The translations under genes and the position numbers were made by a program. The notes below the pieces were generated by a model. That model was given only the letters and a program-made list of their open reading frames with translations. It did no database searches and had not been told where the DNA came from. A stretch of DNA of 64,000 bases from an uncultured bacterium (GTDB lineage Bacteria; Verrucomicrobiota; Verrucomicrobiia; Verrucomicrobiales; DEV007), in NCBI GenBank assembly GCA_963977015.1, contig CAXBMO010000024.1, positions 1-64,000 of the forward strand, written 5' to 3'. Each line of letters begins with the position of its first letter. The stretch's first letter is position 1. This document shows, piece by piece, positions 12,101-50,774 of this stretch.

Positions 12101-12578
12101 AAACCTGCCCCAAAGCCGTCGCATCCGGTCCCAGCGCGGGACTCACCTCAGGGGGAAGCGTTCCGGCCGGAAGGCTGTTCAACTTTTCCAGAATCTTTGC
12201 ACGCGACCAGTCCCATTCGGCGCTTTCGTTGAAGATCACGTAAATGCTGGAGAACCCAAAATAGGAATAGCTCCGAATCGTCTTCACATCCGGAATCCCC
12301 AGCAGCGCGGCCGTGAGCGGATAGGTGATCTGGTCCTCCACGTCCTGCGGCGAACGCCCCATCCAATCGGTGAAAATGATCTGCTGGTTCTCGCCGATGT
12401 CCGGAATCGCATCGACCGGCACGGGGAAACGCGGCAGCCCCCCCAGATCCCACTGAAACGGCGCAGAGAGAATTCCCGCGACCGCGAGTGCTCCTGCGAT
12501 GAGCAGGACTATTAGCTTGTTCGTCAGGCAGAAACGGATGAACGCCGCCACCGGTCCGCCGGGTGTAGAATCGCTCAT
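9102..12578 (-). CDS. cusA: CusA/CzcA heavy-metal efflux RND permease
   Basis: VDAIPDIGENQ, GRSPQDVEDQITYPL, GIAIAIGTIVD, RPAMMT; Met-rich segment LFMPTTMP. Confidence 0.93.
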   Translation of the reverse strand: MSDSTPGGPVAAFIRFCLTNKLIVLLIAGALAVAGILSAPFQWDLGGLPRFPVPVDAIPDIGENQQIIFTDWMGRSPQDVEDQITYPLTAALLGIPDVKTIRSYSYFGFSSIYVIFNESAEWDWSRAKILEKLNSLPAGTLPPEVSPALGPDATALGQVFWYTLEGRDPEGKPAPGWDLQELRSIQDFYVRYALQSTDGVAEVASIGGFQREYQIDVDPDAMRAYGISLAQVFAAVKDSNLDVGARTIEINRIEYVIRGRGFVTSLDDLRKTVVDAPDDIPITLDKIANISFGPALRRGVLDKAGAEVVGGVVVARYGANPMATIDAVKAKIATIASGLPKKSLEDGTVSQVTIVPFYDRTGLINETLETLKVALSEEILITIIVVLLLVFHLRSSVLISMMLPGAVLLTFLAMERFGVDANIVALSGIAIAIGTIVDMGVVLCENVLKALDEADEEEARVEVVFRACAEVGGAVLTAVLTTVVSFLPVFAMEGAEGKLFKPLAYTKTFALVASILIALAVLPPLIHLLFKRRLDRVREKEPRFHRIGLFALATFVALYLGSSWEPLGPAYGLLNHVFVILLVGGLIAAAWGFIQIYERVLRFFLRAKWLLLGIVFGVVTCGLLIWQNLGKEFMPALNEGSFLFMPTTMPHASIGEAKRILQLQDRAINAIPEVDSVVGKIGRADSSLDPAPVSMVETIITYKSEWTVNNEGKRVRQWRDHIKTPDDIWKEITQAADMPGVTSAPKLQPIQTRIVMLQTGMRAPMGLKVYGPDLETLEHVALELEALLQGVPSIDPATVFADRVVGKPYLEINIDREAIARYGISIRGVQNVIEVAVGGRRITTTVEGRERYPVRVRYLRERRDSIEELSEILVPAPDGTQIPLGQLAEIEFVRGPQTIKSEDTFLVAYVIFDKKDGYAEVSVVEEAEAVIQDHLERGLFQLPAGVSFKFTGSYENQVRAEKRLALIVPLALLVIFLIIYLQFRRVSTSLLVFSGIFVAWSGGFMMIWLYNQPWFLDVTLLGIDFRTLFQIHPINLSVAVWVGFLALFGIATDDGVLMGTYLQQRFRETKPETVEAIREATIEAAVKRNRPAMMTTATTLLALIPVLTSSGRGSDVMVPMAIPTFGGMTVAVLTVFVVPTLYCWIEEIRLRFPSLKQG

Positions 12579-12581
12579 AGG

Positions 12582-14963: not shown

Positions 14964-16237
14964 TGCGCAGCCTCCTCCAGGGGTTCGGTCAGGGCCCGGA
15001 TTTGCCAGGCCGCCTTGTGCGCATCAGCTAGAGCGCGGGTCCGCATCAATCGCAGGTCCAGCAGAACGCGTTCCGCTTCGATTAAATCCGTCAGGCTCGC
15101 CTTGTCATTGCGAAAGTCCTCCTCGGTGAGATCAGCGGCTTGGGTTGCCGCCGGGATGAGATTTTCGCTGTAATTCTCCAGGCGATCCGTGGCTTCTCTT
15201 TGGGCGGCCTGAAGTCGGACCGCCTCAGCCAGGAGCGCCTGCTCCGTCGCTTCCAGGCCGGCATCCGCCATCGCCGTCATCGCCGCGGCTTCTTCACGTT
15301 CCGCCTGATATTTCTGACGACGGATGGGCAACTTCACCCCCAGCATCACGGCACCGGCCGTCTCTCCTCCGTCACCAATATCAATCGCGTTGGCGCCCAG
15401 CGTGAACCCCGGCCGGTTGCTCTTTCCCGCAAGGGCCTCGGCTTCTTTGGCCGATTGGATGCTCGCCTCAGCCAGGCGGAGCCTCGGATGACGAGCCCGC
15501 ACCTCCGACTGAATGGCATCCAGCGAACGTCGTGTCGGCGTTTGCTGCGGCAGACTCGGCCATGGGAGAGGTGGACCATCCGGTGTTCGCCCCAACAACG
15601 CTTTCAGCTGCGCGTCCAGCCCCGGACGTTGCTCGCGCAGGGTCGCCACTTCCTGATCGGCCACCGCCAGTTCCACGTCGAGCCGCAAGCTGGTCGCCAG
15701 GCTTCCACCCGCGCGCACCTTTTGCTCAACCACCGGCTTAATCTGTTGGAGAAGCCCCAGATTTTCGACGGCGCGATCGGTCGCCCGTTTCAGATAGGCA
15801 TATTCGATCCGCGCCAACCCCACCTTCTCAATCACCCGGCGTCGCGCCACGTCATAACGGTAGTAGGCCATCCGGGCATTTGCATCCGCCACGCGCTGGC
15901 GCAGCTTCAGCACTCCCGGCCACGGAAACGATTGCGAGACCGCGAACGTTCGCTCCTGTGGTCCCGTCCGGGTTTCCACGCTGGACAGGAATTCCGAGTA
16001 GGTCAACATGGGCTCATCCAGAGCCCTGACTTGGAGGCCTTTACGACTTGCCGCCTGATAAGCCTGGAAGGCGGCAGTCACCTCCGGGTTCGACTTCAAC
16101 GCTTCAACGAGATAGGCGTCATGAGCAATGCATCTCAGCGGGAAGAGAATGACACCAATGAGAAAGTAGGTTCGATACATGAAAAAGTGATTCGATTTGA
16201 GAAAAAAGAGAAAGGAGAGCGGAGCGGGCGAGAACAC
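14960..16237 (-). CDS. TolC-family outer-membrane channel of the Cus-like system (start uncertain, possibly 16180)
   Basis: OEP pattern (ALKSNPEV, SQSFPWPG, RHPRL, DLIEAER); 4-nt overlap with cusB. Confidence 0.85.
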   Translation of the reverse strand: MFSPAPLSFLFFLKSNHFFMYRTYFLIGVILFPLRCIAHDAYLVEALKSNPEVTAAFQAYQAASRKGLQVRALDEPMLTYSEFLSSVETRTGPQERTFAVSQSFPWPGVLKLRQRVADANARMAYYRYDVARRRVIEKVGLARIEYAYLKRATDRAVENLGLLQQIKPVVEQKVRAGGSLATSLRLDVELAVADQEVATLREQRPGLDAQLKALLGRTPDGPPLPWPSLPQQTPTRRSLDAIQSEVRARHPRLRLAEASIQSAKEAEALAGKSNRPGFTLGANAIDIGDGGETAGAVMLGVKLPIRRQKYQAEREEAAAMTAMADAGLEATEQALLAEAVRLQAAQREATDRLENYSENLIPAATQAADLTEEDFRNDKASLTDLIEAERVLLDLRLMRTRALADAHKAAWQIRALTEPLEEAAQ

Positions 16238-16757: not shown

Positions 16758-17432
16758 TTACTCCACGCTCACGCCTTTGGGCTTGGCGGAGGTGATGAGG
16801 GCGGCGTAACCGGTTTGCTTCCAGAAGCGCTCGAAGTCGGTTTTGTTGACGTCGACATGGCCGTATTGGGGATCCATGACGAGGAGTTGATCGTGGCTTT
16901 CGCCCATGACGACGAGGTAATGGGCTTTGAGCTGGTTGCCCCAGCCGTTGACCTGAAGGGTGCGTCGATCAAGCGTTTCGATCACGGGAAGATTCTGGGC
17001 AAAGTAGCGGCCGACGGGAAGCTCGACTGCGACGAGGACAGGGCGGCCTTTGCTGAGGTGGCCGCTAAGCTGCTTCATGGGGTTCTGGTCGAGGGTGACG
17101 GCGAAGGCGAGAAGTTCTTCGGCGACGGCGATTTCGCGAAGCTGGAGGAGCGGGTAGCCGGTGGGGGAATTTGGCGGGTAGGTTTCCCGAAGTTGGGGCT
17201 CGGTGAGGGTGGCGTCTTCCTGCCAGTAGCGGATGAGGCTGGTGAGGGCGGCGGCTCCACAACTGCGTTGGCCGCTTTGCTTGACGACGGGGACTTTGCT
17301 GTAGCGGAAATCGACGTGCTTGAGACGAAAGGCGTAGTCCTCGTCTTTGGATTGCGTGGTGGTTTCACAGCCAACAAGCAGGAGCGTGGTGACGAAGACC
17401 AGGGCATTGCAAAATCGGCTCCAGCTTCTCAT
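16758..17432 (-). CDS. Stand-alone C39-family cysteine peptidase, lipoprotein
   Basis: Lipobox LLVGC; Q...SCGAAAL, HYLVVMG, VMDP catalytic pattern. Confidence 0.8.
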   Translation of the reverse strand: MRSWSRFCNALVFVTTLLLVGCETTTQSKDEDYAFRLKHVDFRYSKVPVVKQSGQRSCGAAALTSLIRYWQEDATLTEPQLRETYPPNSPTGYPLLQLREIAVAEELLAFAVTLDQNPMKQLSGHLSKGRPVLVAVELPVGRYFAQNLPVIETLDRRTLQVNGWGNQLKAHYLVVMGESHDQLLVMDPQYGHVDVNKTDFERFWKQTGYAALITSAKPKGVSVE

Positions 17433-17466
17433 TGGTGAGGGGGCTAAGTCGTGGCAGTGTATTTGC

Positions 17467-17988
17467 ATGTCAGACCCCTCCCCTGCCAGCGAAATTCAGA
17501 TGGTGCAACAAGCGATCAGCTTTGCGGCCCGCGCGCACAAGTTTCATACGCGCAAAGATGGCGATACGCCGTATGTGGCGCATCCCTTCCGCGTGTTTTT
17601 TGTGGTGCGCCATGTTTTTGGCGTGGAGGATCCGGTCGCGCTGTGTGCAGCGCTGCTTCACGATACGATTGAGGATACGACGACGGATTATGATGATGTG
17701 TTGGAGGAGTTTGGCGCCGAGGTGGCAGATGCGGTGGCGGCGCTGACGAAGGATATGCGGTTGCGTGAAGATCTGCGCGAACCGGCGTATGATGCGCAGT
17801 TGGCGGAATCATCCTGGCAGGCGCGGTTGGTGAAGTTGGGCGATGTGTATGACAATTTTTGCGATGGGAGGCATCTTAAGTCGCTCAAGAGTATCCGGGA
17901 GAAGGCCGACCGGGCGATCGCCTGTGCGGGGGATGATGCGCGGTTGAAAGCTGCGGTGGCGACGCTTCGCGAGTTGGTGGCTTCGTAA
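17467..17988 (+). CDS. HD-domain small alarmone hydrolase (Mesh1/SpoT-hydrolase-like)
   Basis: AH..H.RK...PY..HP, ALLHDTIEDT, VKLGD..DN; no synthetase domain. Confidence 0.85.
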   Translation: MSDPSPASEIQMVQQAISFAARAHKFHTRKDGDTPYVAHPFRVFFVVRHVFGVEDPVALCAALLHDTIEDTTTDYDDVLEEFGAEVADAVAALTKDMRLREDLREPAYDAQLAESSWQARLVKLGDVYDNFCDGRHLKSLKSIREKADRAIACAGDDARLKAAVATLRELVAS

Positions 17989-33180: not shown

Positions 33181-33753
33181 ATGCTCGAAATTTTGGCCAT
33201 TCCCGACGTTCGCGAACGAATCGCGCCGATCACGATCGAGCGCTATCACCGCATGATCGACCTCGGCGTGTTTGCGGATTGGAATGTGGAGTTGTTAAAC
33301 GGAGTCCTCGTCGAGAAAATGTCCAAGTCCGCCCTGCACATGTTTGTCATTGATTGTCTGTTGGAATTGCTCCAGCAACATTGTCCGAAATCGGACTACC
33401 TGGTTCGCCAGGAAGGAGCCATCACGATCGGCGATTCCGAACCGGAGCCAGATGTTTCCGCCGTGTTGGGTGCACGTAGCCAATTCAAAAATACCAAGCC
33501 CAACACTGCCCAATTTGTGGCCGAAGTGGCGATCAGTTCCCTGGCCATTGATCGCGCCAAAGCTCCCACCTACGCCCAAGCCGGAATCCCGGAATACTGG
33601 ATCGTCCAGCCGGAAACCCGCGCTACCGAAGTCTACCGCAACCCGGCCAACGGCGAATACACCGAAAAAACCGAAGTCCCCGCCGAAACCACGCTCGAAT
33701 CCAGCGCGCTACCCGGTTTCACCTTCAATCTGGCTGAAACGTTGGCGGAATAG
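33181..33753 (+). CDS. Uma2-family (DUF820) PD-(D/E)xK-like protein
   Basis: VELLNG, SEPEPDV, VAEVA.SSL..DR.K...YA.AGIPEYWIV. Confidence 0.92.
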   Translation: MLEILAIPDVRERIAPITIERYHRMIDLGVFADWNVELLNGVLVEKMSKSALHMFVIDCLLELLQQHCPKSDYLVRQEGAITIGDSEPEPDVSAVLGARSQFKNTKPNTAQFVAEVAISSLAIDRAKAPTYAQAGIPEYWIVQPETRATEVYRNPANGEYTEKTEVPAETTLESSALPGFTFNLAETLAE

Positions 33754-42063: not shown

Positions 42064-45000
42064 CTAACCAAGCAACCGAGCGAGCGATTGATGGGCTGAA
42101 TCAACCCATCCTTGGTCCGGGAGAGCGTAGGGACGGAAGGTTTCAAGGTATCCTTCCTGTTCATTGTAGAACAACGCCCGGTTCAATCCCAGATTGCTGG
42201 CCTTGGGCGAATCAATGAGGCTGGATGAGTCGTTTGCGCTCATTTGGAACAGCACCCGCATTTCAAACTCACTCAACGCCTTGCGGCTCATCCCGCGACT
42301 GATGTTGTTGAAGTTGTCGAACATCGCAATGGTGTGGATGCCCACAGCGGGACCTTCAGTGATCAAATCATTCAACTGAGCTCCGGGCGCAGGAGCGGAT
42401 TCGGCATCGAGCGAGAAACTGAAGTCTTCCTCATAACGCAGCTTCTTGAACTTCTGAAGCCCCTGGATGATGACGAACGTCGTTGGCGCCTCGGCGGCGG
42501 CGGCCTCGTCTTCGGTCCGTGCCTTCATGTCGGACGCCAAATCGGCCATCACCGGCTCAACATCGGAGTTCTGAGCCAATTGAACGTGGTGCTGGAGTCC
42601 GGCGCAAACCCGGTGAAGGAAGGCGCGCTCGGGCGTTTCCGGCGCGGTGCCGTCAAAAACCACGAACTTGAGTTTTCCGGCCGCAAACTGCGCGCTGAGG
42701 GAAACGAGCGAAACCGCCAGAATCGCGAGGGCCGACTCATCCCGCTGACCAACGACGAGCAAATTGTTCCCGCTCTGACGCTGAAACGCGGCTTCCGTTG
42801 GGCCCTTGATGGAATTGGGCGCTCCCAGGTAGGCGCGGACGACGCCACTGGTTGGCGCGATGGATTCCGCGCCGAGCATTTGCTCCAACGCCGAATTCTC
42901 GCGAACGTTGCCCGGCGCGTTGCCCTCGAAAACGACCGGACCGGCATATTTTTTGCCCGAATCGTCGGCGAGTTGGCGAACCTTGGTCAAATAACGCTCG
43001 CGGGTACCGTCGTTGAGCCAAACGACCTGAAACGGATTGTTTCCTTCCACGGCCCCGGCGTTGTCGTTGTAAATTCCCTCTCCGGGACGCGAAAGCAGAC
43101 GCGCCGCCGGGTTGTTGTCGTCCATGATGAGGTAGGAATCCGCCTCATTACACTGCAGCGCGATCCGGATGACCATTTGTCCCAGGGTGGAGCGCGCCAA
43201 GGTGAACGCACCGCCCAACGTCTGCGACCCAAGGATCACATGAATCCCGAAGGCTCGACCTTGACGAACAATCCGGTCCAAGAGCAGGGCTGCGTTTTGC
43301 GAAACGCGATCGTCCTCCACAAAATATTCCTGAAACTCATCAATGAGGAGGAGACTCCGCGGCATTTTTTCCGTTCCGCCCGCGGCTTTGTAGCCGGGAA
43401 TGTCCTGAACGCCAAGCTGGCGGAAGAGATCACCGCGACGCTTCAATTCATCATCGACCCGCTGCAACACGCTGAGTCCGAATTCCCGATCACTCTCGAT
43501 CGCGATGACCTTGGCGTGCGGAAGCCGATGCGTGGCGTAGGCCTTGAATTCGACCCCTTTTTTGAAATCGATCAGGTAAAACTCGACCTCATCCGGACTG
43601 AACCAAGACGCCAGGTTGGTGATCATGACGTGAAACAACGTCGATTTGCCGGAACCGGTCTTCCCTGCAACCAACGCGTGCTGCTGGGTTCCCTTCCCGA
43701 TCGCCAGTTGCTGCAATTTCGTCGCTCCCGTCCTCCCGATCGGCACTTTCAACTCCTTGGTCGTATCCAGACTCCAGAACTGCTCATCGGTCGGGGCGAT
43801 GGTTTCGAACGGCACTTCCACGCGCGTTGAGTCGACGCTGGCCTGACCAACTTTGTGGATGAAATTGATCGCGTAATCCGGATCTGGCGCCGCCTCCGGG
43901 ACAATTGAAGCTCCGCGGATCGCATCGTCCGTGAAGATGACGCTGTCGGTTTTGCAGGTGAGACAGGCCGCAGTGTTGCGAAGGTCCTGCGGCTTAAAAC
44001 CGGAAGGAGCCGGGCTGCGCGTGTCCCAGTGAATCAGGGCATAAACACCACACCGCGCTCCGCTTTGCACGATGCTCATGAGGCGTTTCACCGCCATATC
44101 GCTGAATCCGTTCGGGAAATCCGCGACCACCAGGTAGTGGTATTTTTCGGCAATATTCCCGGCCGCCTCGTTGTATTCCGTGATCGTGCTGTAGTCGTTT
44201 CGCAGATACATCTGGATCACCTTCTCCATGTGCTCGTTCAGCTCACCGAGGCGTTTGTCGATGTGCTCGGATTGCGTCCAAATCCGGCTGTTGATCAAGC
44301 TTTCCTCGTAATCCGCCATGTGCATGATCCCGGCGAAATTTTCGCCCAAACTCACGGGATCCAGAATCGTGAAACTCAGCCGCCCGGGCGGAGTCAGCGA
44401 CATGAGCCGCAAAATCACATTGTTCAGCGTGCTGATCCCGACCTCACGACCAACGTTGCCGCTTTCCACCAAAACGCTGCCTTGGTCGGGGATTTTGAGG
44501 GTCAGCGGAATCGACAACTCAGCCGGTCCCGGAAGCGCCAATTTCGGACTTTCCGGAAGCTCTCCGGCCAATTCCGCGACATCGACATTCACGGTCCCAA
44601 GATTGGCGACGTTGTGGAATTCGGTCGGGCTTTGCCAATTCTCAATAAATTCCTGAGTCCACGGCGGAAACAGCTCGGAACTGGCCGCATTCGCAGCGCC
44701 CACGGCCTGGTAAATGCCGGTCATCTCCGCGTTCCATTCCGCGATCAAATTCTCCCAATTCGTTTCGTAGTTGGAGCCAACTTCGCTCAAGCCGCCCTGC
44801 ATCGACTGAATCAAGGTCTGCTTGGTCGACTCCGCCTGAGATTTGAGCGAAGCGAGCTGATTCTCCAAACTGCTGTTCAACTCAGCCAGCTTTCGTTCGC
44901 GAATGCTGTCGAATTTGCCCATCACCCGAACATTCTGATCCTCGATCTTTTTCGGGTAGGTCGCCTTCATGGCTTCGGCTTCCTGGAGAGCAACATTGTA

Positions 45001-45972
45001 GTTTCGCTTCAGCTCGGCGATTCGATCGGTGTGCGCGCCTTCAATCAACGCGACCTGCTGCTGATAATGCGCGTCGGAATCCAGGGAACAGGCATCGACC
45101 AATTGCCGCGACCGACCCATCGCTTTGGCGATTTTCGCGGCGGCCCCGGTCGCGTTCTTCTTTCCGGCAAAATAGAAAAAGCAGGTCAGGATCAGAAGCC
45201 ACAATGCCGAAACGCCGACGGCCCCGACATACAGCATCTCGACTTCGTTGTAGAGCAGGAGCCCCGCAACCGCGCCGTGAACCAGGAGAATCAGGATGAT
45301 CAGCAACGAAACCGGCAAGGCGCCGAAAAAGCGCGGCATCACGTATTTCTTGAAGTCGTTCAACTCCGCCGCGGCCGTGTTCATTTCTCCGCGATAGACA
45401 TCCATCATCGCCTCCACATCCTCTGAGATCTCAGCCACCGGCACCTTCCGTTCCTTCGCCATCATGCGACGAAATGCGCTGTAACCGCGCGTTGCCCGCT
45501 TCGCGGCCTTCTCCATCCGCACCAGATCCTTATGATCGTCGCCCACGATGGTTCGCAGTGCTTCGACCCGCTCCCAGGCCTTGCCGAAGGCCGCGTCCCT
45601 CTCGCGATCCGCCATCATGCGGTTCTTCTGCATCTCGTAGGTCCCCTGCCCTTCGCGCGCCGCGATCACTTCGCGAACGCGTTGGCGGCTGTTCATGTAA
45701 GCCTGGTTGATCCGCGCTTTTCGCTGCTCGAACCGTTGCTCCACTTGAACCACCTTGTTGGCATGCAGCTCCTCGACCTGCTGCAACTGCTTCTCAAGCT
45801 TCTTGTCCTCAACCTCCAGCGCCTCCTCAGTTTCCGTCTCAAGGCGGGAAGTATTCACCCGGGAACCAGACTCGACACGAGATTCGCGTTTCGCGAAATC
45901 GGCGACGCTGGTTTTGAGGCGATCGATGAGTTCGCGCGTCTGGCGAACTGTCAAAAAGTCGTCGTTATTCAC
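42064..45972 (-). CDS. Membrane-anchored FtsK/SpoIIIE-family ATPase, EssC/EccC-like (1302 aa)
   Basis: Coiled-coil N-terminus and two TM helices; one intact P-loop domain (AGKTGSGKST, LIDFKKG, LLIDEFQE, GRAFGIHVILGSQ) flanked by two degenerate RecA-like domains. Confidence 0.88.
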   Translation of the reverse strand: MNNDDFLTVRQTRELIDRLKTSVADFAKRESRVESGSRVNTSRLETETEEALEVEDKKLEKQLQQVEELHANKVVQVEQRFEQRKARINQAYMNSRQRVREVIAAREGQGTYEMQKNRMMADRERDAAFGKAWERVEALRTIVGDDHKDLVRMEKAAKRATRGYSAFRRMMAKERKVPVAEISEDVEAMMDVYRGEMNTAAAELNDFKKYVMPRFFGALPVSLLIILILLVHGAVAGLLLYNEVEMLYVGAVGVSALWLLILTCFFYFAGKKNATGAAAKIAKAMGRSRQLVDACSLDSDAHYQQQVALIEGAHTDRIAELKRNYNVALQEAEAMKATYPKKIEDQNVRVMGKFDSIRERKLAELNSSLENQLASLKSQAESTKQTLIQSMQGGLSEVGSNYETNWENLIAEWNAEMTGIYQAVGAANAASSELFPPWTQEFIENWQSPTEFHNVANLGTVNVDVAELAGELPESPKLALPGPAELSIPLTLKIPDQGSVLVESGNVGREVGISTLNNVILRLMSLTPPGRLSFTILDPVSLGENFAGIMHMADYEESLINSRIWTQSEHIDKRLGELNEHMEKVIQMYLRNDYSTITEYNEAAGNIAEKYHYLVVADFPNGFSDMAVKRLMSIVQSGARCGVYALIHWDTRSPAPSGFKPQDLRNTAACLTCKTDSVIFTDDAIRGASIVPEAAPDPDYAINFIHKVGQASVDSTRVEVPFETIAPTDEQFWSLDTTKELKVPIGRTGATKLQQLAIGKGTQQHALVAGKTGSGKSTLFHVMITNLASWFSPDEVEFYLIDFKKGVEFKAYATHRLPHAKVIAIESDREFGLSVLQRVDDELKRRGDLFRQLGVQDIPGYKAAGGTEKMPRSLLLIDEFQEYFVEDDRVSQNAALLLDRIVRQGRAFGIHVILGSQTLGGAFTLARSTLGQMVIRIALQCNEADSYLIMDDNNPAARLLSRPGEGIYNDNAGAVEGNNPFQVVWLNDGTRERYLTKVRQLADDSGKKYAGPVVFEGNAPGNVRENSALEQMLGAESIAPTSGVVRAYLGAPNSIKGPTEAAFQRQSGNNLLVVGQRDESALAILAVSLVSLSAQFAAGKLKFVVFDGTAPETPERAFLHRVCAGLQHHVQLAQNSDVEPVMADLASDMKARTEDEAAAAEAPTTFVIIQGLQKFKKLRYEEDFSFSLDAESAPAPGAQLNDLITEGPAVGIHTIAMFDNFNNISRGMSRKALSEFEMRVLFQMSANDSSSLIDSPKASNLGLNRALFYNEQEGYLETFRPYALPDQGWVDSAHQSLARLLG

Positions 45973-46177
45973 AGTCTTTCCGGACCTTGGCTACAATTTT
46001 GTCAAGCTTATCGATGACAGTGACGGCCGTGTCCACATTTTCAAACAACCCACTGAGATAACGCGCCTCAAATTCAAGCGCTTTTTGGTCGCGCCAGTAA
46101 GCCCTGGTCGCCTCCCACTTGCGAGAGAGCTCCTTGGTCGATCCGGCCAACCTCGCTTTACTGGCATTCATATTCAT
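45965..46177 (-). CDS. Short WXG100-like helical hairpin protein (70 aa)
   Basis: Two amphipathic helices around W-R-D...F; overlaps both neighbouring genes. Confidence 0.7.
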   Translation of the reverse strand: MNMNASKARLAGSTKELSRKWEATRAYWRDQKALEFEARYLSGLFENVDTAVTVIDKLDKIVAKVRKDCE

Positions 46178-46749
46178 TGCTCATCCTCCTTTGTCTCTGG
46201 AGCATCCACCTGTGACTCGGCAGCTGCGGCATCCTCTGAGGTTGCCAGAGTCGTCGTCGTATCACCGGCCGACGTCCGCGCCGTGCCCGCATATTCATCC
46301 AGGCTCTTGACCGCCTGCGCCAGATACGCGACCGCCTTCGGCAAATCGTTGCCCACCATGTTGCGCAACCGCTCCAGATTCCGCGCCATTGGCTCCACCT
46401 GGCTGTCGAACGAGCGAATCCAACTCTGCGTCGCCCGCAGCTTCGTTTCCGCCTCGCGCAACGCCTCCTCGCAACGCTCCACCTGACGCTTTTGCAAGGT
46501 CGTCGAATCCATCATGCTGGACAACTCGGCGCTGAACAGCTCCTGCTGTGCATCGTTCAACTTCCGCGTTCGACGCCGGATCTCCGTTTTCCAATGCGGA
46601 ATCTGGTTGTTCAGCAACCAAACCCGAAGCCGCGTCACCTCATCGCTCACCTCGGCAAGCGACATCCCCGCCTTTTCCATGTAGGTGATGAGCGAGGCTC
46701 GAAAGTCCTCCAACGCATCAACCCGGGAGATGTTCGCCTTGTCTGCCAT
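46174..46749 (-). CDS. Elongated helical WXG100-like protein (191 aa)
   Basis: All-helical heptad pattern; N- and C-terminal motifs resemble the 90-aa WXG100 protein; acidic low-complexity tail. Confidence 0.7.
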   Translation of the reverse strand: MADKANISRVDALEDFRASLITYMEKAGMSLAEVSDEVTRLRVWLLNNQIPHWKTEIRRRTRKLNDAQQELFSAELSSMMDSTTLQKRQVERCEEALREAETKLRATQSWIRSFDSQVEPMARNLERLRNMVGNDLPKAVAYLAQAVKSLDEYAGTARTSAGDTTTTLATSEDAAAAESQVDAPETKEDEQ

Positions 46750-46757
46750 CGTCCCGT

Positions 46758-47030
46758 CTAACGTTGGCTCAGGTAATCCTCAATCCGCTGGGCCTTCCGA
46801 AGCAGGAGCGGCGCATGCCGGTTCGACGCTTCGAGAAATTTCTTCAGCGCCTTGCTCGTATCCTGAAACTCCTCGGCAAATTGCTGGTGCTCCTGATCCT
46901 GCCAAGTATCACCCAGCGCCGAAAACCGCGCCTGCAGCGAACTCATCCGGTTTTGGAGATCTCCGTTAAACCGCTTCAATTCTTCAGCGAAACGCCGAAC
47001 TTCTTCTGGATCAATAATTGCCTGGGCCAT
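46758..47030 (-). CDS. WXG100/ESAT-6-like protein (90 aa, W-x-D variant)
   Basis: I.DPEEV..FA..L, central L..TWQD....F, helix-turn-helix size of about 90 aa. Confidence 0.88.
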   Translation of the reverse strand: MAQAIIDPEEVRRFAEELKRFNGDLQNRMSSLQARFSALGDTWQDQEHQQFAEEFQDTSKALKKFLEASNRHAPLLLRKAQRIEDYLSQR

Positions 47031-47103: not shown

Positions 47104-48279
47104 TTAGCTCGGCACGCCTGGAGCCTCAACAGGCGATTCAGCCTCCTCAGGTTCCTCCACTTCCCGAATCTTGACTTCCATGCCCTCGATGACGGCTTCG
47201 ATGGGGGTGAGGCAGATTCGTTCGCCCTGATCGAGACCGGCGGTGACGATGGCTTCGTCGCCCTGACGCCGGAGAACGTTGACGGTGCGGAACTTGAGCC
47301 GGTTGTCCGGACCGACGAGGACGAGGCGGTCTTCGCCGTAGAAGGCTTTGAGGGGGACGCGGACGGCGTCGCGAATCGTGCGGCCTTCCACCGCCGCCTG
47401 GACGAAGAGGCCGGGTTGCATGATGGCGATGTCGCTGGGGCGCGGGCTGACTTCGGCCACGAGGTAAACGGAGCGACTGGCCCGATCGATGACGCCTTCC
47501 TGCCTAACGACGTTGCCATTCCATTCGAAGGTTTGGCCGCCAGCTTGGGTTTTGAGCACCGCCTTGGGGTTGTCGCCCACGAGGGCAAATTCATCGAGGG
47601 AAAGCGGGAGACGGATCTCGAACGGGGCGACGGCGTAGACGTTGGCGACGGGGGCGCCCGGGGTGAGGAAGGAACCCAGTTCGACACTGATTTTCTCCAA
47701 ACGGCTGTCGTAATCCGCTTTGATCTCGGTTCGCACCAAATCGCGCTGGGCTTTCTCCACATTCGCCTTCGCAGCTTCGATGCGGGCCTTGGCACTGGCG
47801 ATTTGAGGTTTGCGCAGGGTCAGATCGGTCGGCTTTCCTCCGCGCCCAAGCCGCTGCCAGTCGCGATATGCTTTTTCAGCCTGGGCCTCTTCCGTTGCGA
47901 GCATCAATTCGGCCTCGGCTTTGGTGGCTTTGGCCTGGGCGAGGGCGGATTCGTAGTCAGCCTTTTCCAGCCGAATCATGGGCTCGCCCTTGGTGAATTG
48001 ACCACCGGCCTCAAATTTCTCTGAAACCCAGACGACTTTGCCGGCGACTTCGGCGGCAAGTTGCGTTTCGCGCGCAGGCTCGACCATGCCCTGGGAGGGA
48101 AGCTCCAATTTCAGCGTCTCTTTCTCGACGCTGGCGACTTCGACAACCGGAAGCGCCCGAACAGTCGGCGCCTTCTCAGCCTCCGGCTTCAGCTTCAGGA
48201 GAACCACCGCCGCTGCCACTCCGGCGCCTAAAACGATCAAGCACAGAACTAGCTGAGTCAGCTTCAGGGAGAGTTTCAC
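47104..48279 (-). CDS. RND-type periplasmic adaptor (membrane fusion protein)
   Basis: N-terminal TM, L.AEVAGKV, alpha-hairpin, RTEIKA, PGLFV.A, GL..GE. Confidence 0.9.
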   Translation of the reverse strand: MKLSLKLTQLVLCLIVLGAGVAAAVVLLKLKPEAEKAPTVRALPVVEVASVEKETLKLELPSQGMVEPARETQLAAEVAGKVVWVSEKFEAGGQFTKGEPMIRLEKADYESALAQAKATKAEAELMLATEEAQAEKAYRDWQRLGRGGKPTDLTLRKPQIASAKARIEAAKANVEKAQRDLVRTEIKADYDSRLEKISVELGSFLTPGAPVANVYAVAPFEIRLPLSLDEFALVGDNPKAVLKTQAGGQTFEWNGNVVRQEGVIDRASRSVYLVAEVSPRPSDIAIMQPGLFVQAAVEGRTIRDAVRVPLKAFYGEDRLVLVGPDNRLKFRTVNVLRRQGDEAIVTAGLDQGERICLTPIEAVIEGMEVKIREVEEPEEAESPVEAPGVPS

Positions 48280-49801
48280 GTTTCTTGTTTACGATTTCAG
48301 ATGGTTCATGGCTGCGAAAATCGCCGCCGAGAGCGACATGCAGATCAACTCGATTGTCTAGACGTTGTCGACGGGCATCGATTAACGCGGATTCAGAATT
48401 GATCAACTGTTGTTGCGCACGGAGAAGCGTTAACACATCGCCGACGCCTCCGACATAGTCGTCCCGGGCGCGATCCAGCGCGTCGCGGCCCAGAGCGACG
48501 GCCTTTTGCAAGGCGGCAACGCGTTTGGCCTGGTATGAGTCGGCGGCCAATGCTTCCTCGACTTCGCGAAAGGCAGTCAATGCGGTTTGCTCAAAGTTTG
48601 CCAATGCGGCTTCGGCCTCGGCTTCGCGGAGTTGCACGGTTGCGCGGAGGCGTTTTCCGTCGAGCAACGGCTGGGCGGCGCGACCGGCAATGCTCCAGAC
48701 GGTGAAGTCGGTGTCGAAAATGTCGCTCAGGTCTTCGGTCGACGTTCCGTAGGCTCCGGTGAGCGTCACCGCCGGAAGGAGGCTGCGTTTGGCCTGAACG
48801 ATGCGCTCGTCGCTGGCGGAGAGGCGGCGCTCAGCGGCGACGAGGTCGGGACGACGCTCCAGAAGTTCGGCGGGAATTCCAGCCGGAGGCGCGCCGGGCA
48901 TGCTCGGCAGACGCGAGGCCGACCGCAATTCACTGGAGGGATAACGCCCCAAAATGACTTCCAGCAATTTGTTGGAGCGCATGAGTTCCTCCTGGCGCTG
49001 GTAGACGGCTGCGCGGGAGTTTTCGACGTCGGCCAGCGCGAGTTGCAGCTCTCCGGCCGCATTTTCGCCCAACCCTTTCTCAAATTCCGTCCGAATGATC
49101 TCCTGGGTTTGGTTGAAGATCTGCAGGGCCCGCTCCGAAAGTTCGGTTTGCTCCTTGGCGGCGATCAACGCGAACCAGCCCTTGGCGGTTTGCGACGCAA
49201 TCGAAAGTTGAGCGGCGCGAAAATCGGCTTCCGAAGCCTGGAGCTCCGCCAACGACGCGGATTTTGCCGCCGCGACCCGTCCCCAGAGATCCAATTCCCA
49301 GGTCAGGTTGAGATCGAGACCAAAGCTATTGCTCAACGTTGTCTGGACCGTTTCGACAGGCGCGGCACCATCCGTCGTGGTTCCTGACGTTCCCCGCGGA
49401 AAACCGATGAAGTTTCGCTGCGTGCGAACGCCATCGAACTCTCCGCTCACCTGGGGTTTACGGTCGGCGCCGGCGATGATCACGTTGGAGCGGGCCTGGC
49501 GAATGCGGGCGGCAGTGGACTTGAGATCGTAGTTGTTGGCCAGGGCCTCATCGACGATCTGCTTCAGCTTGGGATCGCGAAAGGTCGTAACCCACTCGGC
49601 GTCAGCCATCGGCTTGTTGGCGGCGCGCTCGGTCCATCCTTCCGGAATTTTCAGGCCCAGTTTCTCGTAATCGGGCTCAGGTGTGGTGACACACCCAGCC
49701 AGGAGCAGAGTGCACAAAAACGCAGCCGGGATCGCTGCGAACAAATGCGCAGCCCCCTCGTGCTCGCGGCAGGGGCGAGTCGAAGCCTCAGGGTTCTTCA
49801 T
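48176..49801 (-). CDS. NodT/OprM-type outer-membrane efflux lipoprotein (TolC family)
   Basis: Lipobox LLAGC; F.DP.L..IV.EAL.NN.DL, WELDLWGR, LLERRPDL.AAE, ALGG. Confidence 0.92.
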   Translation of the reverse strand: MKNPEASTRPCREHEGAAHLFAAIPAAFLCTLLLAGCVTTPEPDYEKLGLKIPEGWTERAANKPMADAEWVTTFRDPKLKQIVDEALANNYDLKSTAARIRQARSNVIIAGADRKPQVSGEFDGVRTQRNFIGFPRGTSGTTTDGAAPVETVQTTLSNSFGLDLNLTWELDLWGRVAAAKSASLAELQASEADFRAAQLSIASQTAKGWFALIAAKEQTELSERALQIFNQTQEIIRTEFEKGLGENAAGELQLALADVENSRAAVYQRQEELMRSNKLLEVILGRYPSSELRSASRLPSMPGAPPAGIPAELLERRPDLVAAERRLSASDERIVQAKRSLLPAVTLTGAYGTSTEDLSDIFDTDFTVWSIAGRAAQPLLDGKRLRATVQLREAEAEAALANFEQTALTAFREVEEALAADSYQAKRVAALQKAVALGRDALDRARDDYVGGVGDVLTLLRAQQQLINSESALIDARRQRLDNRVDLHVALGGDFRSHEPSEIVNKKRETLPEADSASSVLDRFRRRSGSGGGSPEAEAGG

Positions 49802-49946
49802 CGTCTCAAAAAAAGGGAGTCGGGTGTGGTCGGCAAAAAGAGGGGTGAGGATATTTCGCACATGTTAGACATTTTACGAGTGTAAAGTGAGGAAGCGCCG
49901 TCAAAAACTCCTTGGCGGAGTCCGCAGAATGGTGAATGGCTCTAAC

Positions 49947-50774
49947 ATGGCCACCACTCTAGCAGGCACGAGATTCGACCTCCGATTTGGAGATTGCATC
50001 GCAGGCATGAAAAAGCTGCGAGACGAATCCATCGATCTCGTCGTCACGTCTCCGCCTTACAATCTCGGGACGAACTATGGCAAATACAAAGACAACAAAT
50101 CGGTCGAGGAGTATCTGGAATGGTGCAAAACCTGGGCCGGCCAAATTCAGCGCATTCTCAAACCCGACGGCTCGTTTTTTCTGAACATCGGGGCTTCGCC
50201 AGCCAACCCCTTGCTCCCCCATCAGCTCCTTCTGGCGCTGACGCCCGAACTCTTTACGCTGCAAAACACATTTCACTGGGTGAAATCCATCACCGTCGAA
50301 ACTCGAGCGGGCGAGGAAGTGTCTGTGGGTCATTTCAAGCCGATCAATTCGAAGCGATTCGTGAACGATTGCCACGAATTTGTTTACCACTTCACGCTCG
50401 AGGGCAATATCCCGCTCGACCGGCGTGGGATCGGGGTGGAATACGTACACAAGAGCAATATTTCGCGCTGGGGCCACACCGGAGGAGAAGACAAACGCTG
50501 TCGCGGCAACAACTGGTTTGTGCCCTATGAAACCATCCAAAAGCGCAGCAAGGAGCGCCCGCATCCGGCAACGTTTCCGGTGAAACTCGCCTCAATGTGC
50601 ATCGGCATCATGGATCGTGATCCGAGTGCCATCACGATGCTGGATCCCTTTCTCGGGATTGGCCACGCCGCGATTGCCGCTGAAAACGAAGGCGTTGACC
50701 GGTTTATCGGCTTCGAAATTGATAAGAAGTATTTCAAGGAAGCGAAATCCCGACTCGCCCCGCCCGAAGAATGA
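49947..50774 (+). CDS. Orphan amino-DNA methyltransferase (beta class, N4-C or N6-A)
   Basis: VVTSPPY catalytic motif precedes HPATFP and the LDPFLGIG SAM-binding motif. Confidence 0.9.
   Translation: MATTLAGTRFDLRFGDCIAGMKKLRDESIDLVVTSPPYNLGTNYGKYKDNKSVEEYLEWCKTWAGQIQRILKPDGSFFLNIGASPANPLLPHQLLLALTPELFTLQNTFHWVKSITVETRAGEEVSVGHFKPINSKRFVNDCHEFVYHFTLEGNIPLDRRGIGVEYVHKSNISRWGHTGGEDKRCRGNNWFVPYETIQKRSKERPHPATFPVKLASMCIGIMDRDPSAITMLDPFLGIGHAAIAAENEGVDRFIGFEIDKKYFKEAKSRLAPPEE

Follow-up and report, generated by a model that had tools for sequence, protein, structure and literature searches.

A four-gene WXG100/FtsK-like ATPase operon from Verrucomicrobiota as a candidate self-contained, type-VII-related export module

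What might WXG100-like proteins encoded beside an FtsK-type ATPase do in a bacterium with an outer membrane? The window analysed here, a 64,000-nt stretch of the verrucomicrobial contig CAXBMO010000024.1, carries four minus-strand genes for WXG90, CC191, S70 and a large ATPase (Table 1). The spacing given in an earlier sequence-only reading is borne out by the open reading frames and the sequence: the WXG90 and CC191 genes are separated by an 8-nt gap (46750–46757), the CC191 and S70 genes overlap by 4 nt (ATGA) and the S70 and ATPase genes by 8 nt (GTGAATAA). The outer membrane ascribed to the host is supported as well: the window encodes two OEP/TolC-family proteins, an AcrB-type pump and a BamB-like protein, and a PfkB kinase gene adjoins that of a SIS-domain protein.

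Table 1. Features of the four-gene cassette, in window coordinates
Feature	Coordinates	Strand	Description
WXG90 gene	46758-47030	minus	90 aa, WXG100 family
CC191 gene	46174-46749	minus	191 aa, helical; ~155-aa N-terminal helical domain, then 38-aa acidic tail
S70 gene	45965-46177	minus	70 aa, WXG100-like hairpin
ATPase gene	42064-45972	minus	1302 aa, GTG start, EccC/EssC family
ATPase N-terminal arm, residues 1-210	45343-45972	minus	one helix 9-160, then short helices (AlphaFold2)
ATPase transmembrane hairpin, residues 214-270	45163-45333	minus	predicted from hydropathy, flanking charges, model
ATPase return arm, residues 271-434	44671-45162	minus	one helix with TM2 over 246-434 (AlphaFold2)
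ATPase first P-loop-fold domain, residues ~455-730	43783-44610	minus	degenerate; SGNVGREVGIS at Walker A site
ATPase catalytic domain, residues ~731-1000	42973-43782	minus	Walker A and Walker B LLLIDEFQ
ATPase third P-loop-fold domain, residues ~1001-1302	42064-42972	minus	degenerate, GQRDES

Judged by its sequence, WXG90 is a true WXG100 protein, and the Pfam WXG100 profile (PF06013) matches residues 6–85 with 44.9 bits against a cut-off of 27.3. The usual W-x-G is replaced by W43-x-D45 within TWQD (residues 42–45). Both W43 and D45 are invariant in the gap-free alignment of WXG90 homologues (A2; 60 rows, 90 columns), and the C-terminal LLRKAxRIEEYLxQR is conserved. The mean column identity is 67% across two phyla, which is unusually high for a secreted effector, and the length is exactly 90 aa in 58 of 65 homologues. 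There are also longer proteins with a WXG90-like N-terminal domain and mutually unrelated C-termini; a WXG-like head with a variable C-terminus is an architecture tied to T7SS export in the relevant passages of Zhang et al. (2012, PMC3482391). WXG90 is, as a separate observation, conserved more strongly than the motor ATPase.

CC191 matches no Pfam or NCBIfam family at or above cut-off, and sequence comparison detects no relation to WXG90. Its helical domain ends in a tyrosine, Y153, that is present in 60/60 rows of an alignment (A4) with a mean identity of only 22%, and the 38-aa acidic tail is probably disordered. The canonical T7SS signal Y-x-x-x-D/E is not matched. An Imm33-like C-terminal domain occurs in five of the eight CC-family proteins tested, the carriers being five of the six that exceed 320 aa, and further members end in another, unnamed domain. 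The CC family thus bears swappable C-terminal domains.

S70 carries YWRD at residues 27–30, so W-x-D is confirmed in both small proteins as first read. Its hallmarks (alignment A3) are W21, W28-x-D30 and a near-invariant penultimate cysteine, the end being ...DCE. The S70 of the window has no Pfam match; among 60 members there are five weak WXG100 and two WXG100_2 matches, and the profile–profile comparison with WXG90 gives a probability of 67% (E 5e-5) with W-x-D aligned to W-x-D. Modelled against CC191 and WXG90, S70 reaches an ipSAE of 0.80 (runs 0.80, 0.79 and 0.80; best of three controls 0.02), a mark that 116 of 157 solved complexes and two of 215 mismatched pairs attain; this supports rather than shows binding, and resemblance to helical-bundle complexes already solved may account for the pass. 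The runs share at least 96% of contacts, with partner pLDDT of at least 89. In the model S70 touches CC191 over residues 1–49 and 103–146 and WXG90 at residues 86–89 only, so that the predicted partner is CC191 rather than WXG90. Joint prediction of the small proteins, as had been suggested, therefore gave a candidate S70–CC191 complex and no EsxA/EsxB-type pair.

By sequence and predicted fold, the ATPase is a member of the EccC/EssC family. Pfam FtsK_SpoIIIE scores 98.7 bits against a cut-off of 24, and none of the top NCBIfam matches, EccCa, EssC and EccCb, comes near its cut-off (EccC/EssC 1.4e-30 versus FtsK 2e-8). The PDB sequence-profile search returns EccC (4nh0, 4e-41), also EccC5 and YukB, with FtsK at 8e-11; the fold search (model pLDDT 92.1) again places 4nh0 best, with E 1.2e-33 over 953 columns, followed by EssC D2–D3. 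The claimed homology to the WXG100 and EccC/EssC core therefore holds. A Pfam search finds no FHA domains. The middle domain is the only catalytic one and holds the sole Walker A motif, GKTGSGKS (residues 770–777, bases 43642–43665); G773, S774, G775, K776, S777, D878 and E879 are invariant in the ATPase alignment (A1). The third domain keeps a C-terminal surface motif, RVLFQMSANDS ... FRPY, and by analogy with EccC D3 (4n1a) it may be the client-binding domain.

The two membrane segments that had been reported are present as hydrophobic stretches at residues ~214–240 and ~246–270, modelled as helices at 221–241 and from 246 onward. The loop between them is ~4 residues long, and because Lys/Arg flank either side, both ends of the hairpin are predicted to be cytoplasmic. 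In the AlphaFold2 model of residues 1–500 (pLDDT 92.9, pTM 0.54) the hairpin separates two helices of roughly 150 residues each. Judging by helix length, this stalk would keep the ATPase domains some 20 nm or more away from the membrane; no comparable stalk is seen in the EccC/EssC structures matched by the ATPase model, and Foldseek returns only generic antiparallel coiled coils (Rad50, dynein stalk, MukB, chemoreceptors). Most of 70 homologues have the hairpin at the same position, and arm length is conserved at only 12–28% sequence identity. Four of the 70 lack the hairpin through a precise deletion (three Prosthecobacter MAGs and one Phycisphaerae MAG), so that some PVC clades have lost it. 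Three of these hairpin-less loci (L051, L054, L079) retain all three small genes; in the fourth (L055) S70 is the only small gene found. The related L025/L026 ATPases also have no membrane segment.

The four-gene locus is more than a chance arrangement, because the Pfam scores exceed their cut-offs and the order recurs. Among 88 distinct loci from Verrucomicrobiota and Planctomycetota, 17 were set aside as too short or without a full ATPase open reading frame; 60 of the 71 assessable loci keep the order WXG100, coiled-coil, 70-aa WXG-like hairpin, ATPase, with all three small genes upstream on the same strand. Both the conserved order and the PVC setting proposed from the sequence are thereby upheld. 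A start–stop overlap is found at 36 of 57 CC–S70 junctions. No fifth gene is conserved and no other family recurs beside the cassette in related loci, where the flanking genes vary. Since WXG90, CC191 and S70 are also single-copy in the genome, the cassette appears self-contained. It is patchily distributed, in 10/301 Verrucomicrobiota and 36/301 Planctomycetota genomes sampled. The ATPase tree (FastTree, midpoint root) tracks taxonomy: Planctomycetota fall on one side of a branch, families cluster and the clade of Verrucomicrobiota has 100% local support, so inheritance with loss fits better than frequent transfer. Searches of the genome find no EccB, YukD/EccD-type, YukC/EssB or EssA, in agreement with the parts first listed as missing; the EccE search carries no weight, as its control was silent. 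Likewise the window contains no toxin, nuclease or immunity domain, as expected from the earlier statement that the locus has no toxin–immunity pair, and no outer-membrane or periplasmic partner is conserved across related loci.

Regarding known systems, T7SSa (ESX) of Actinomycetota comprises EccB, EccC, EccD, EccE and MycP with EsxA/EsxB. The cassette shares with it a WXG100 protein and an FtsK-like ATPase of the EccC type that has several domains and two membrane helices; in structure the cassette's ATPase comes closest to the T. curvata EccC cytoplasmic domain. However, neither EccB nor a YukD/EccD-type domain was found in the genome, only one ATPase domain is active, the hairpin is flanked by a long coiled-coil stalk, W-x-D replaces W-x-G, no EsxA/EsxB-type pair is modelled and the NCBIfam EccC scores are far below cut-offs. 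T7SSb of Bacillota comprises EssC/YukB, EsaA, EssA, EssB, EsaB and EsxA, with LXG toxins and Lap partners. In LXG–Lap, a larger helical domain and small WXG-like partners target a variable C-terminal domain for export. The EssC-like motor and WXG100 protein are shared, and the modelled CC191–S70 bundle touched by WXG90 may resemble LXG–Lap (described in part of Klein et al., 2024, PMC10801868) in outline. Unlike T7SSb, the cassette has no FHA domains, EssA, EssB/YukC or EsaB/YukD, CC191 shows no detectable relation to WXG90, and no toxin or immunity gene lies at the locus. The relevant sections of Garrett, Higginson and Palmer (2024, PMC11217815) describe T7SSc to T7SSj variants in Bacillota and Actinomycetota only, which like the cassette combine a core ATPase and WXG100 protein with lineage-specific extras; those sections contain no occurrence of diderm, Chloroflex, Pseudomonadota or Cyanobacteri.

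We propose, as an evenly balanced judgement, that the cassette belongs to the 'stand-alone WXG100/FtsK-like ATPase operon' class, as a self-contained module related to type VII secretion, and that it exports its own proteins to the periplasm; this is the likeliest role, at about an even chance. A long two-helix stalk would carry the ATPase at one end and, at the other, the transmembrane hairpin in the inner membrane, with WXG90, CC191 and S70 as clients or cofactors of the ATPase. S70, a truncated WXG-like hairpin, would pack on the CC191 helical domain to form a four-helix 'carrier', and the variable CC191 C-terminus would be the cargo position, here occupied by the acidic tail alone. The ATPase may oligomerise, its degenerate third domain recognising the helical bundles by their conserved C-terminal ends, and ATP would drive their passage over the cytoplasmic membrane to the periplasm, with no dedicated outer-membrane step encoded. 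Homology, the conserved operon, hairpin anchoring, carrier pairing and variable C-termini argue for export. The hairpin-less forms, the ~4-residue periplasmic loop, the absence of a conserved outer-membrane or periplasmic part, the WXG90 conservation and the unmatched Y-x-x-x-D/E signal argue against it, and the long stalk would make a simple channel-coupled motor less obvious.

Two other machines may be read from the locus and its surroundings. Directly upstream, on the strand of the cassette, are OEP (155.4 bits) and HlyD_3 genes (47104–49861), 73 nt from the WXG90 start and without an adjacent pump gene of their own; with the EccC-like ATPase, this membrane-fusion protein and TolC-like channel would make a type-I-like route through both membranes. 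We consider this very improbable because the linkage is not conserved: no homologue of either was found in any of 88 other loci, and in the closest relative (L030) the place of the pair is taken by an opposite-strand gene. Hardly credible is an FtsK/TraB-type DNA translocase that adjoins small helical proteins by chance. Its catalytic domain is of the FtsK/SpoIIIE family and also matches the defence proteins SspH and mad8 in their FtsK-like parts; however, a canonical FtsK is encoded elsewhere in the genome (207.7 bits, contig C7), EccC/EssC scores are far better than those of FtsK and the WXG100 linkage is conserved.

A more serious, if tentative, alternative is a non-secretory machine in which the ATPase, whether or not it is tethered to the membrane, would act on the helical-bundle proteins by assembling, unfolding or remodelling them, either in the cytoplasm or on the inner face of the membrane, for example in membrane organisation or signalling, and nothing crosses the membrane. 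The antiparallel stalk resembles those of Rad50, MukB, dynein and chemoreceptors and is unlike a translocon, and the conservation of its length and of the hairpin position despite low identity suggests a ruler-like role. The missing hairpins, the extremely conserved, length-invariant WXG90 and the lack of a conserved periplasmic or outer-membrane partner point the same way. However, characterised EccC/EssC and WXG100 systems are described as exporters in the consulted parts of the papers cited here, most homologues keep the hairpin, and variable C-termini on WXG-like and CC carriers suit export cargo. We think it rather unlikely that the cassette is a mobile conflict or defence element that delivers or uses toxin, immunity or nuclease cargo to counter competitors or phages. 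Such a role is proposed for relatives within TerY-P and CoCoNuT loci; the relevant parts of Zhang et al. (2012, PMC3482391) speak of 'mobile versions of T7SS', and those of Bell et al. (2024, PMC11090510) place a hairpin-less relative inside type III-A CoCoNuT loci. L025 has a CoCoNuT-like layout (vWA, vWA, WXG100, 436-aa coiled-coil, two small ORFs, 1059-aa ATPase, PP2C, kinase), some CC proteins have Imm33-like ends, the distribution is patchy and the flanking genes vary. Against this, no toxin, nuclease or immunity domain is encoded in the window, the cassette lies among housekeeping genes (EF-G, rRNA methylase, phosphorylase), only 9 of 108 nearest-neighbour ORFs (58 loci) match PADLOC at 1e-10, mostly through generic domains, the tree follows taxonomy and WXG90 shows no diversification. 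The first interpretation, an ESX-like machine for export or a non-secretory role, is thus partly supported: the homology stands, export is our preferred reading, and the stalk and hairpin-less variants keep the non-secretory option.

The arrangement itself has been in print since 2012 and is not new. Zhang, de Souza, Anantharaman, Iyer and Aravind (Biol Direct, PMC3482391, Table 1 footnote 6) noted solo WXG genes beside a YueA-like ATPase of three domains, the middle one alone active, in lineages including planctomycetes and verrucomicrobia. According to section 10 of Bell et al. (2024), Anantharaman et al. (2012, Mol Biosyst) noted it too. These notices, one a footnote and one a passing comment, draw on comparative genomics and give no anatomy of the PVC form. 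The same part of Bell et al. also covers a coiled-coil protein, a further WXG100-like protein that lacks W-x-G, and an ATPase with a long coiled coil at its N-terminus; their CoCoNuT-linked relative has two WXG100 genes and a coiled-coil–nuclease fusion and, unlike the window cassette, no membrane segment. The earlier reading knew of no experimental characterisation in PVC bacteria, and our literature search likewise found no experimental study of the PVC cassette and no RNA or proteome data for it; comparative genomics, by contrast, had already described the arrangement. Judged against the relevant passages of these papers, the present analysis adds to the class the membrane hairpin between the stalk arms, the predicted S70–CC191 pairing, the W-x-D motif shared by WXG90 and S70, the range of C-termini in the CC family, Imm33-like ones included, and PVC clades that have lost the hairpin.

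The cassette is encoded by four co-directional ORFs, namely the WXG100-family protein WXG90, the helical coiled-coil protein CC191, the WXG-like hairpin S70 and an ATPase related to EccC/EssC. Their junctions in the window DNA are an 8-nt gap, an ATGA overlap and a GTGAATAA overlap. The sequence-only reading had described four tightly coupled genes with TWQD and YWRD motifs in the two WXG-type products, and the ORF coordinates, the spacing and both motifs were all found in place. WXG90, S70 and CC191 are each single-copy in the window's genome. Compared with shuffled sequence, there is no excess of promoter-like sites (3 seen, 2.1 expected) or of terminator-like sites (9 seen, 11.8 expected).

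Coordinates of the four cassette genes in the window
Gene	Position	Strand	Product
WXG90	46758-47030	minus	90 aa ORF
CC191	46174-46749	minus	191 aa ORF
S70	45965-46177	minus	70 aa ORF
ATPase	42064-45972	minus	1302 aa ORF

WXG90 matches the WXG100 profile of Pfam (PF06013) at 44.9 bits against a cut-off of 27.3, with residues 6-85 placed on profile positions 4-83 of 86, and scores below the stricter NCBIfam model TIGR03930 (33.6 versus 44.85 bits). Its length agrees with the approximately 100 residues of the WXG100 family, and exactly 90 residues are found in 58 of 65 homologues. The W-x-G turn is not kept: W43-x-D45 is invariant in all 60 rows of the family alignment, so that Asp replaces Gly family-wide. 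This alignment covers 90 columns without a gap, has a mean column identity of 67% and retains a conserved C-terminus. A search with the WXG90 profile matched 1735 protein-library representatives at E<=0.001, 737 at <=1e-10 and 46 at <=1e-30. Among the best 150 matches are proteins of 186-359 residues (P0248, P0256, P0259, P0265 and P0249 are examples) that carry the WXG90-like W-x-D domain at the N-terminus. The C-terminal parts of these long proteins are mutually unlike (11 scanned, 8 aligned); one of the 11 is weakly papain-like peptidase in its C-terminal part, under the cut-off, and two of the long proteins look like WXG-CC fusions.

S70 matched no curated family in Pfam or NCBIfam. W21, W28 and D30 are invariant across its family, and the penultimate Cys is near-invariant. 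We compared the S70 and WXG90 family alignments by hhalign, which gave a probability of 67% and an E-value of 5e-5 with W-x-D placed on W-x-D. When iterated, the S70 and WXG90 profiles converge, and PF06013 is matched weakly by 5 of 60 S70 members (PF25547 by 2 of 60; the window copy matches neither). Because of the profile-profile alignment, the converging profiles and the five weak WXG100 matches, S70 is taken, with moderate support, as a probable shortened relative of WXG100.

CC191 is the variable member of the cassette, with a mean identity of 22% and family lengths from 165 to ~360 residues. No curated Pfam or NCBIfam family matched it, and profile comparison with WXG90 showed no relation (probability 0.9%). 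The T7SS export motif is Y-x-x-x-D/E, located after a helical domain. In the CC191 family, the tyrosine that closes the helical domain is invariant (60/60), and the canonical signal is judged from the alignment to be missing since Asp or Glu occurs at Y+4 in only 4 of 60 members. In WXG90, Y86 sits four residues before the C-terminal Arg.

We modelled WXG90, CC191 and S70 together, with our own alignments as input and S70 as the scored partner. S70 scored an ipSAE of 0.80 (0.80, 0.79 and 0.80 in the individual runs), with 0.02 for the best of three controls. This mark was attained by 116 of 157 solved complexes and by 2 of 215 mismatched pairs, and attaining it may stem from resemblance to solved helical-bundle complexes. 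Contact agreement between runs is at least 96%, and the partner pLDDT is at least 89. WXG90 was modelled solely as a non-scored chain of this job, with a pLDDT of 86 for the other chains. The predicted contacts of S70 involve residues 1-49 and 103-146 of CC191, and of WXG90 only residues 86-89. The model supports, as a prediction, binding of S70 to CC191.

The C-terminal parts of the CC family differ between loci. At the C-terminus of five of the eight CC-family proteins scanned, PF24719 (Imm33-like) passes the Pfam cut-off; the five are among the six proteins longer than 320 residues. These five long forms (loci L061, L065, L072, L085 and L097) all come from Phycisphaerae or Tepidisphaeraceae. 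The name Imm33 derives from immunity proteins of polymorphic toxin systems. Protein-atlas matches of CC191 comprise only unnamed PVC clusters and one cluster of 433 members, 64% of which carry the Imm33-like domain. In addition, the C-terminal part of P0249, one of the long WXG90-like proteins, reappears as the C-terminal domain of CC-family proteins at eight metagenome loci. The ATPase gene is on the same contig at three of the eight, following the W, CC and S70 genes in L114 and L117 and preceding them in L115. Pfam named no family for this domain. A ParB-like reading of it in P0249 and the CC proteins of L110-L117 was suggested by a motif; Pfam matched nothing, and the reading was dropped.

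The ATPase matches FtsK_SpoIIIE of Pfam at 98.7 bits. Its best NCBIfam matches are EccCa (1.4e-30), EssC (5.1e-29) and EccCb (3.8e-25), compared with 2e-8 for FtsK, and all three lie under the equivalog cut-offs (106.6 of 509.15, 100.6 of 778.4 and 88.2 of 346.55 bits, respectively). A profile of 13 homologues compared with solved structures placed EccC of T. curvata (4nh0, 4e-41), EccC5 and YukB ahead of FtsK (8e-11). The AlphaFold2 model of residues 440-1302 (76-row alignment, pLDDT 92.1, pTM 0.82) shows three α/β domains, and Foldseek returned the three-ATPase EccC structure 4nh0 first (E 1.2e-33, 953 columns), then EccC/EssC D2-D3 and then FtsK. By NCBIfam, PDB profile and fold, the P-loop domain is therefore nearer to EccC/EssC than to FtsK, and the model and Foldseek agree on three tandem FtsK-like cytoplasmic domains. 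Walker A is kept solely in the middle domain (GKTGSGKS at residue 770); the corresponding positions hold SGNVGREVGIS in the first domain and GQRDES in the third.

In the N-terminal region, hydropathy marks two neighbouring hydrophobic stretches (residues ~214-240 and 246-270), which are flanked on both sides by Lys/Arg. The two stretches form a two-TM hairpin (214-270) set between ~210 and 165 residues of coiled coil. In the model of residues 1-500 (70-row alignment, pLDDT 92.9, pTM 0.54), a helix at 9-160 is followed by a few short ones and by TM1 at 221-241; one long helix then spans 246-434 and continues into the first P-loop domain. Foldseek matched this region only to long antiparallel coiled coils, including Rad50 (5.8e-4), dynein stalks, MukB and chemoreceptors, with low TM-scores. 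We interpret the modelled region as a stalk of two arms, tipped by the membrane hairpin and carrying the ATPase at its opposite end; the stalk length, estimated from that of the helices, would be 20 nm or more. Most of 70 homologues retain the position of the hairpin (~205-270) and the length of the region (~490-500 residues), at identities to the window ATPase of 12-28%, save one close relative at 71%. In four of these homologues, the hairpin is cleanly deleted and both arms are kept. Three of them are from Prosthecobacter MAGs (L051, L054 and L055) and one is from a Phycisphaerae MAG (L079). All three small genes are present at L051, L054 and L079, and the S70 gene alone was found upstream at L055.

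To define the relation to type VII secretion, we compared the gene content of the window's genome, which is 95.26% complete, with the component sets of the known systems. No match was found in it for EccB (PF05108; control positive), for YukD (PF08817, the domain at the EccD N-terminus and in EsaB/YukD), or for EssA and EssB/YukC (PF10661 and PF10140), and the controls for the last three were positive in B. subtilis. The search for EccE (PF11203) was silent, as was its control, and is uninformative. In contrast to T7SSa (ESX), no EccB and no YukD-type domain was found in the cassette genome; in contrast to T7SSb, no EssA, EssB/YukC or EsaB/YukD was found, and Pfam finds no FHA domain in the ATPase. 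The sequence-only reading, which had proposed WXG100 and EccC/EssC homology together with an absence of the other T7SS parts, is upheld in both respects: WXG90 belongs to the WXG100 family, the ATPase is nearest to EccC/EssC, and EccB, YukD, YukC and EssA were not found in this genome.

The conservation of the cassette was analyzed over a wider set of genomes. A protein search with the ATPase gave thousands of matches, of which the best 120 are nearly all ~1300 residues long; the few names among these 120 are 'FtsK/SpoIIIE domain-containing protein' from Verrucomicrobiota, including Pedosphaera parvula Ellin514. Loci were collected from a scan of species-representative genomes (80, in Verrucomicrobiota and Planctomycetota, including Singulisphaera, Gemmatales, Pirellulales, Phycisphaerae and others) and from a phylum sample (9). 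Homologues from the scan include one in the complete genome of Singulisphaera sp. Ch08 and one in a MAG labelled Planctomicrobium piriforme. This gave 88 distinct loci, 17 of which are unjudgeable (11 with <1.3 kb upstream and 6 without a full ATPase ORF called). By single-sequence search, 57 of the remaining 71 have all three small genes upstream, co-directional and in unchanged order; profile search adds three, giving 60/71, which bears out the expectation of a conserved four-gene order. Among the 11 exceptions, five have no small gene nearby (L023, L024, L052, L089 and L098), three have S70 only, one has CC and S70, and two are of another type (L025 and L026). At L023 (genome G169) and L024 (G289), the ATPase gene stands alone. 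The cassette can be split, because the WXG90 gene is on another contig in both genomes. No further gene family recurs beside the cassette across the fetched loci; the extra clusters present in at least five loci are opposite-strand ORFs within cassette genes, as judged from the example members checked.

With the WXG90 profile, 10 of the 301 genomes sampled from the window's phylum and 36 of the 301 sampled from Planctomycetota each gave one copy. The ATPase search at 1e-30 matched 12 of the 301 genomes in the former sample, two of which (G105 and G041) gave weaker partial matches to other FtsK-family proteins. In a FastTree phylogeny of the ATPase region, which was midpoint-rooted and from which no direction of transfer is claimed, Planctomycetota fall on one side of a branch, Verrucomicrobiota form a single clade (local support 100%), and members of a family group with each other. 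Nested in the verrucomicrobial clade are single contigs labelled Bacteroidetes, Bifidobacteriaceae and Sulfopaludibacter. The cassettes of five loci labelled Acidobacteriota, Bacteroidetes, Bifidobacteriaceae, Gemmatimonadales or Acidoferrum (L038, L044, L057, L067 and L101) are 47-64% identical to verrucomicrobial ones, and those included in the tree nest in the same clade. The oddly labelled contigs are probably binning errors and not transfers.

This kind of locus has been noted before. Footnote 6 to Table 1 of Zhang et al. 2012 (PMC3482391) is the source for stand-alone operons of WXG100 and a YueA-like ATPase, and the cassette has the features of the stand-alone WXG100/FtsK-like operon as worded in that footnote. 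Section 10 of Bell et al. 2024 (PMC11090510), citing Anantharaman et al., describes a module of this kind within type III-A CoCoNuT loci. The traits given in that section are also found here: a second WXG100-like protein (S70), a coiled-coil protein (CC191) and a long N-terminal coiled coil (helix 9-160). However, relative to the CoCoNuT-linked form in the same section, the cassette ATPase has a membrane hairpin and the cassette's coiled-coil protein lacks a nuclease. A more complex second form occurs in the window's phylum at L025 (1522-10808, G160) and L026 (G260). The gene order of L025 is vWA, vWA, WXG100, a 436-aa coiled-coil protein, two small ORFs, a 1059-aa ATPase, a 155-aa ORF, PP2C and a Ser/Thr kinase; this three-domain ATPase has no hydrophobic segment. 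The layout of L025 and L026 is the TerY-P-linked layout of that section of Bell et al. 2024. The cited passages of Garrett et al. 2024 (PMC11217815) assign T7SS subtypes c to j to Bacillota and Actinomycetota only, and the T7SS literature, in the passages cited here, describes the system only in these two phyla. A literature search of main texts turned up no experiments on the PVC form. The arrangement itself is not new to PVC bacteria: on the evidence of the cited parts of Zhang et al. 2012 and Bell et al. 2024, the class has been in print for these phyla from 2012 onward, so the window locus adds a further example to a kind already known.

The setting of the window bears on the envelope of the host. 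The inference of an outer membrane is reasonable because the window encodes two OEP/TolC-family proteins, an AcrB-type pump, a BamB-like protein and a PfkB kinase beside a SIS-domain protein. At 9102-16237 (minus) lies a complete metal-type RND efflux operon, which encodes an outer-membrane factor, an AcrB-family pump and a CusB-like adaptor that bears heavy-metal-binding domains. The cassette is immediately preceded, on its own strand, by overlapping ORFs at 47104-49861 (minus) for a TolC-type factor (OEP, 155.4 bits) and an HlyD-type adaptor, with no inner-membrane pump gene adjoining. Coupling of this pair to the cassette was rejected: neither protein has a homologue in the neighbourhood of the cassette at any of the 88 other loci retrieved. 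Elsewhere in the window are a DNA methylase gene at 49887-50774 (+; N6_N4_Mtase, 131.2 bits) with no adjacent restriction gene and, away from it, a Uma2-family putative restriction endonuclease gene at 33181-33753 (+). A 236-aa ORF at 16758-17468 (minus) has a partial Peptidase_C39 match confined to its C-terminal end (residues 181-227) and may be a fragment or have a mis-called start.

ATP-driven export of the cassette's own helical bundles into the periplasm is the reading that we favour, at about an even chance. Export accounts least well for the clades without a hairpin, for the length of the stalk and for the extremely high conservation of WXG90. A machine with a non-secretory role ranks after export, as a possible if somewhat doubtful explanation. 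That the genes form a conflict cassette seems improbable. PADLOC named no defence system for the four cassette proteins; the FtsK-like domain matches SspH and mad8, the coiled coils match weakly, and neither WXG-type protein matches any model. Among the nearest-neighbour ORFs from 58 loci, 9 of 108 match PADLOC at 1e-10, and these are mostly generic (sigma-54 activator, kinase, subtilase and cysteine desulfurase), with one each of TIR, Fic and reverse transcriptase.

Alongside export as the favoured reading, we tentatively propose a type-VII-derived route by which folded carrier-cargo complexes, built as helical bundles, would leave the cytoplasm of LPS-type diderm PVC bacteria. In such a route, an EccC-like motor on a fixed-length coiled-coil stalk, ending in a membrane hairpin, would handle the WXG100 protein and a CC-S70 carrier. 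The carrier would have a swappable C-terminus, which would be an acidic tail in this cassette and, at other loci, a nuclease or a domain that is either Imm33-like or unnamed. If true, this would be a third general route to the periplasm beside Sec and Tat in these phyla, and the carrier-cargo machine would have an architecture unlike any solved T7SS.

Since the window locus is one more member of its class, what it offers is a lead into an understudied system rather than the discovery of a new kind. In bacteria that have an outer membrane, the core pair of WXG100 and EccC seems to function somehow in the absence of EccB/D/E or EssA/B. The cassette provides a four-gene minimal system for asking what the EccC/WXG100 pair does alone, with testable features in its one catalytic site, fixed-length stalk, predicted carrier heterodimer and natural hairpin-less variants.
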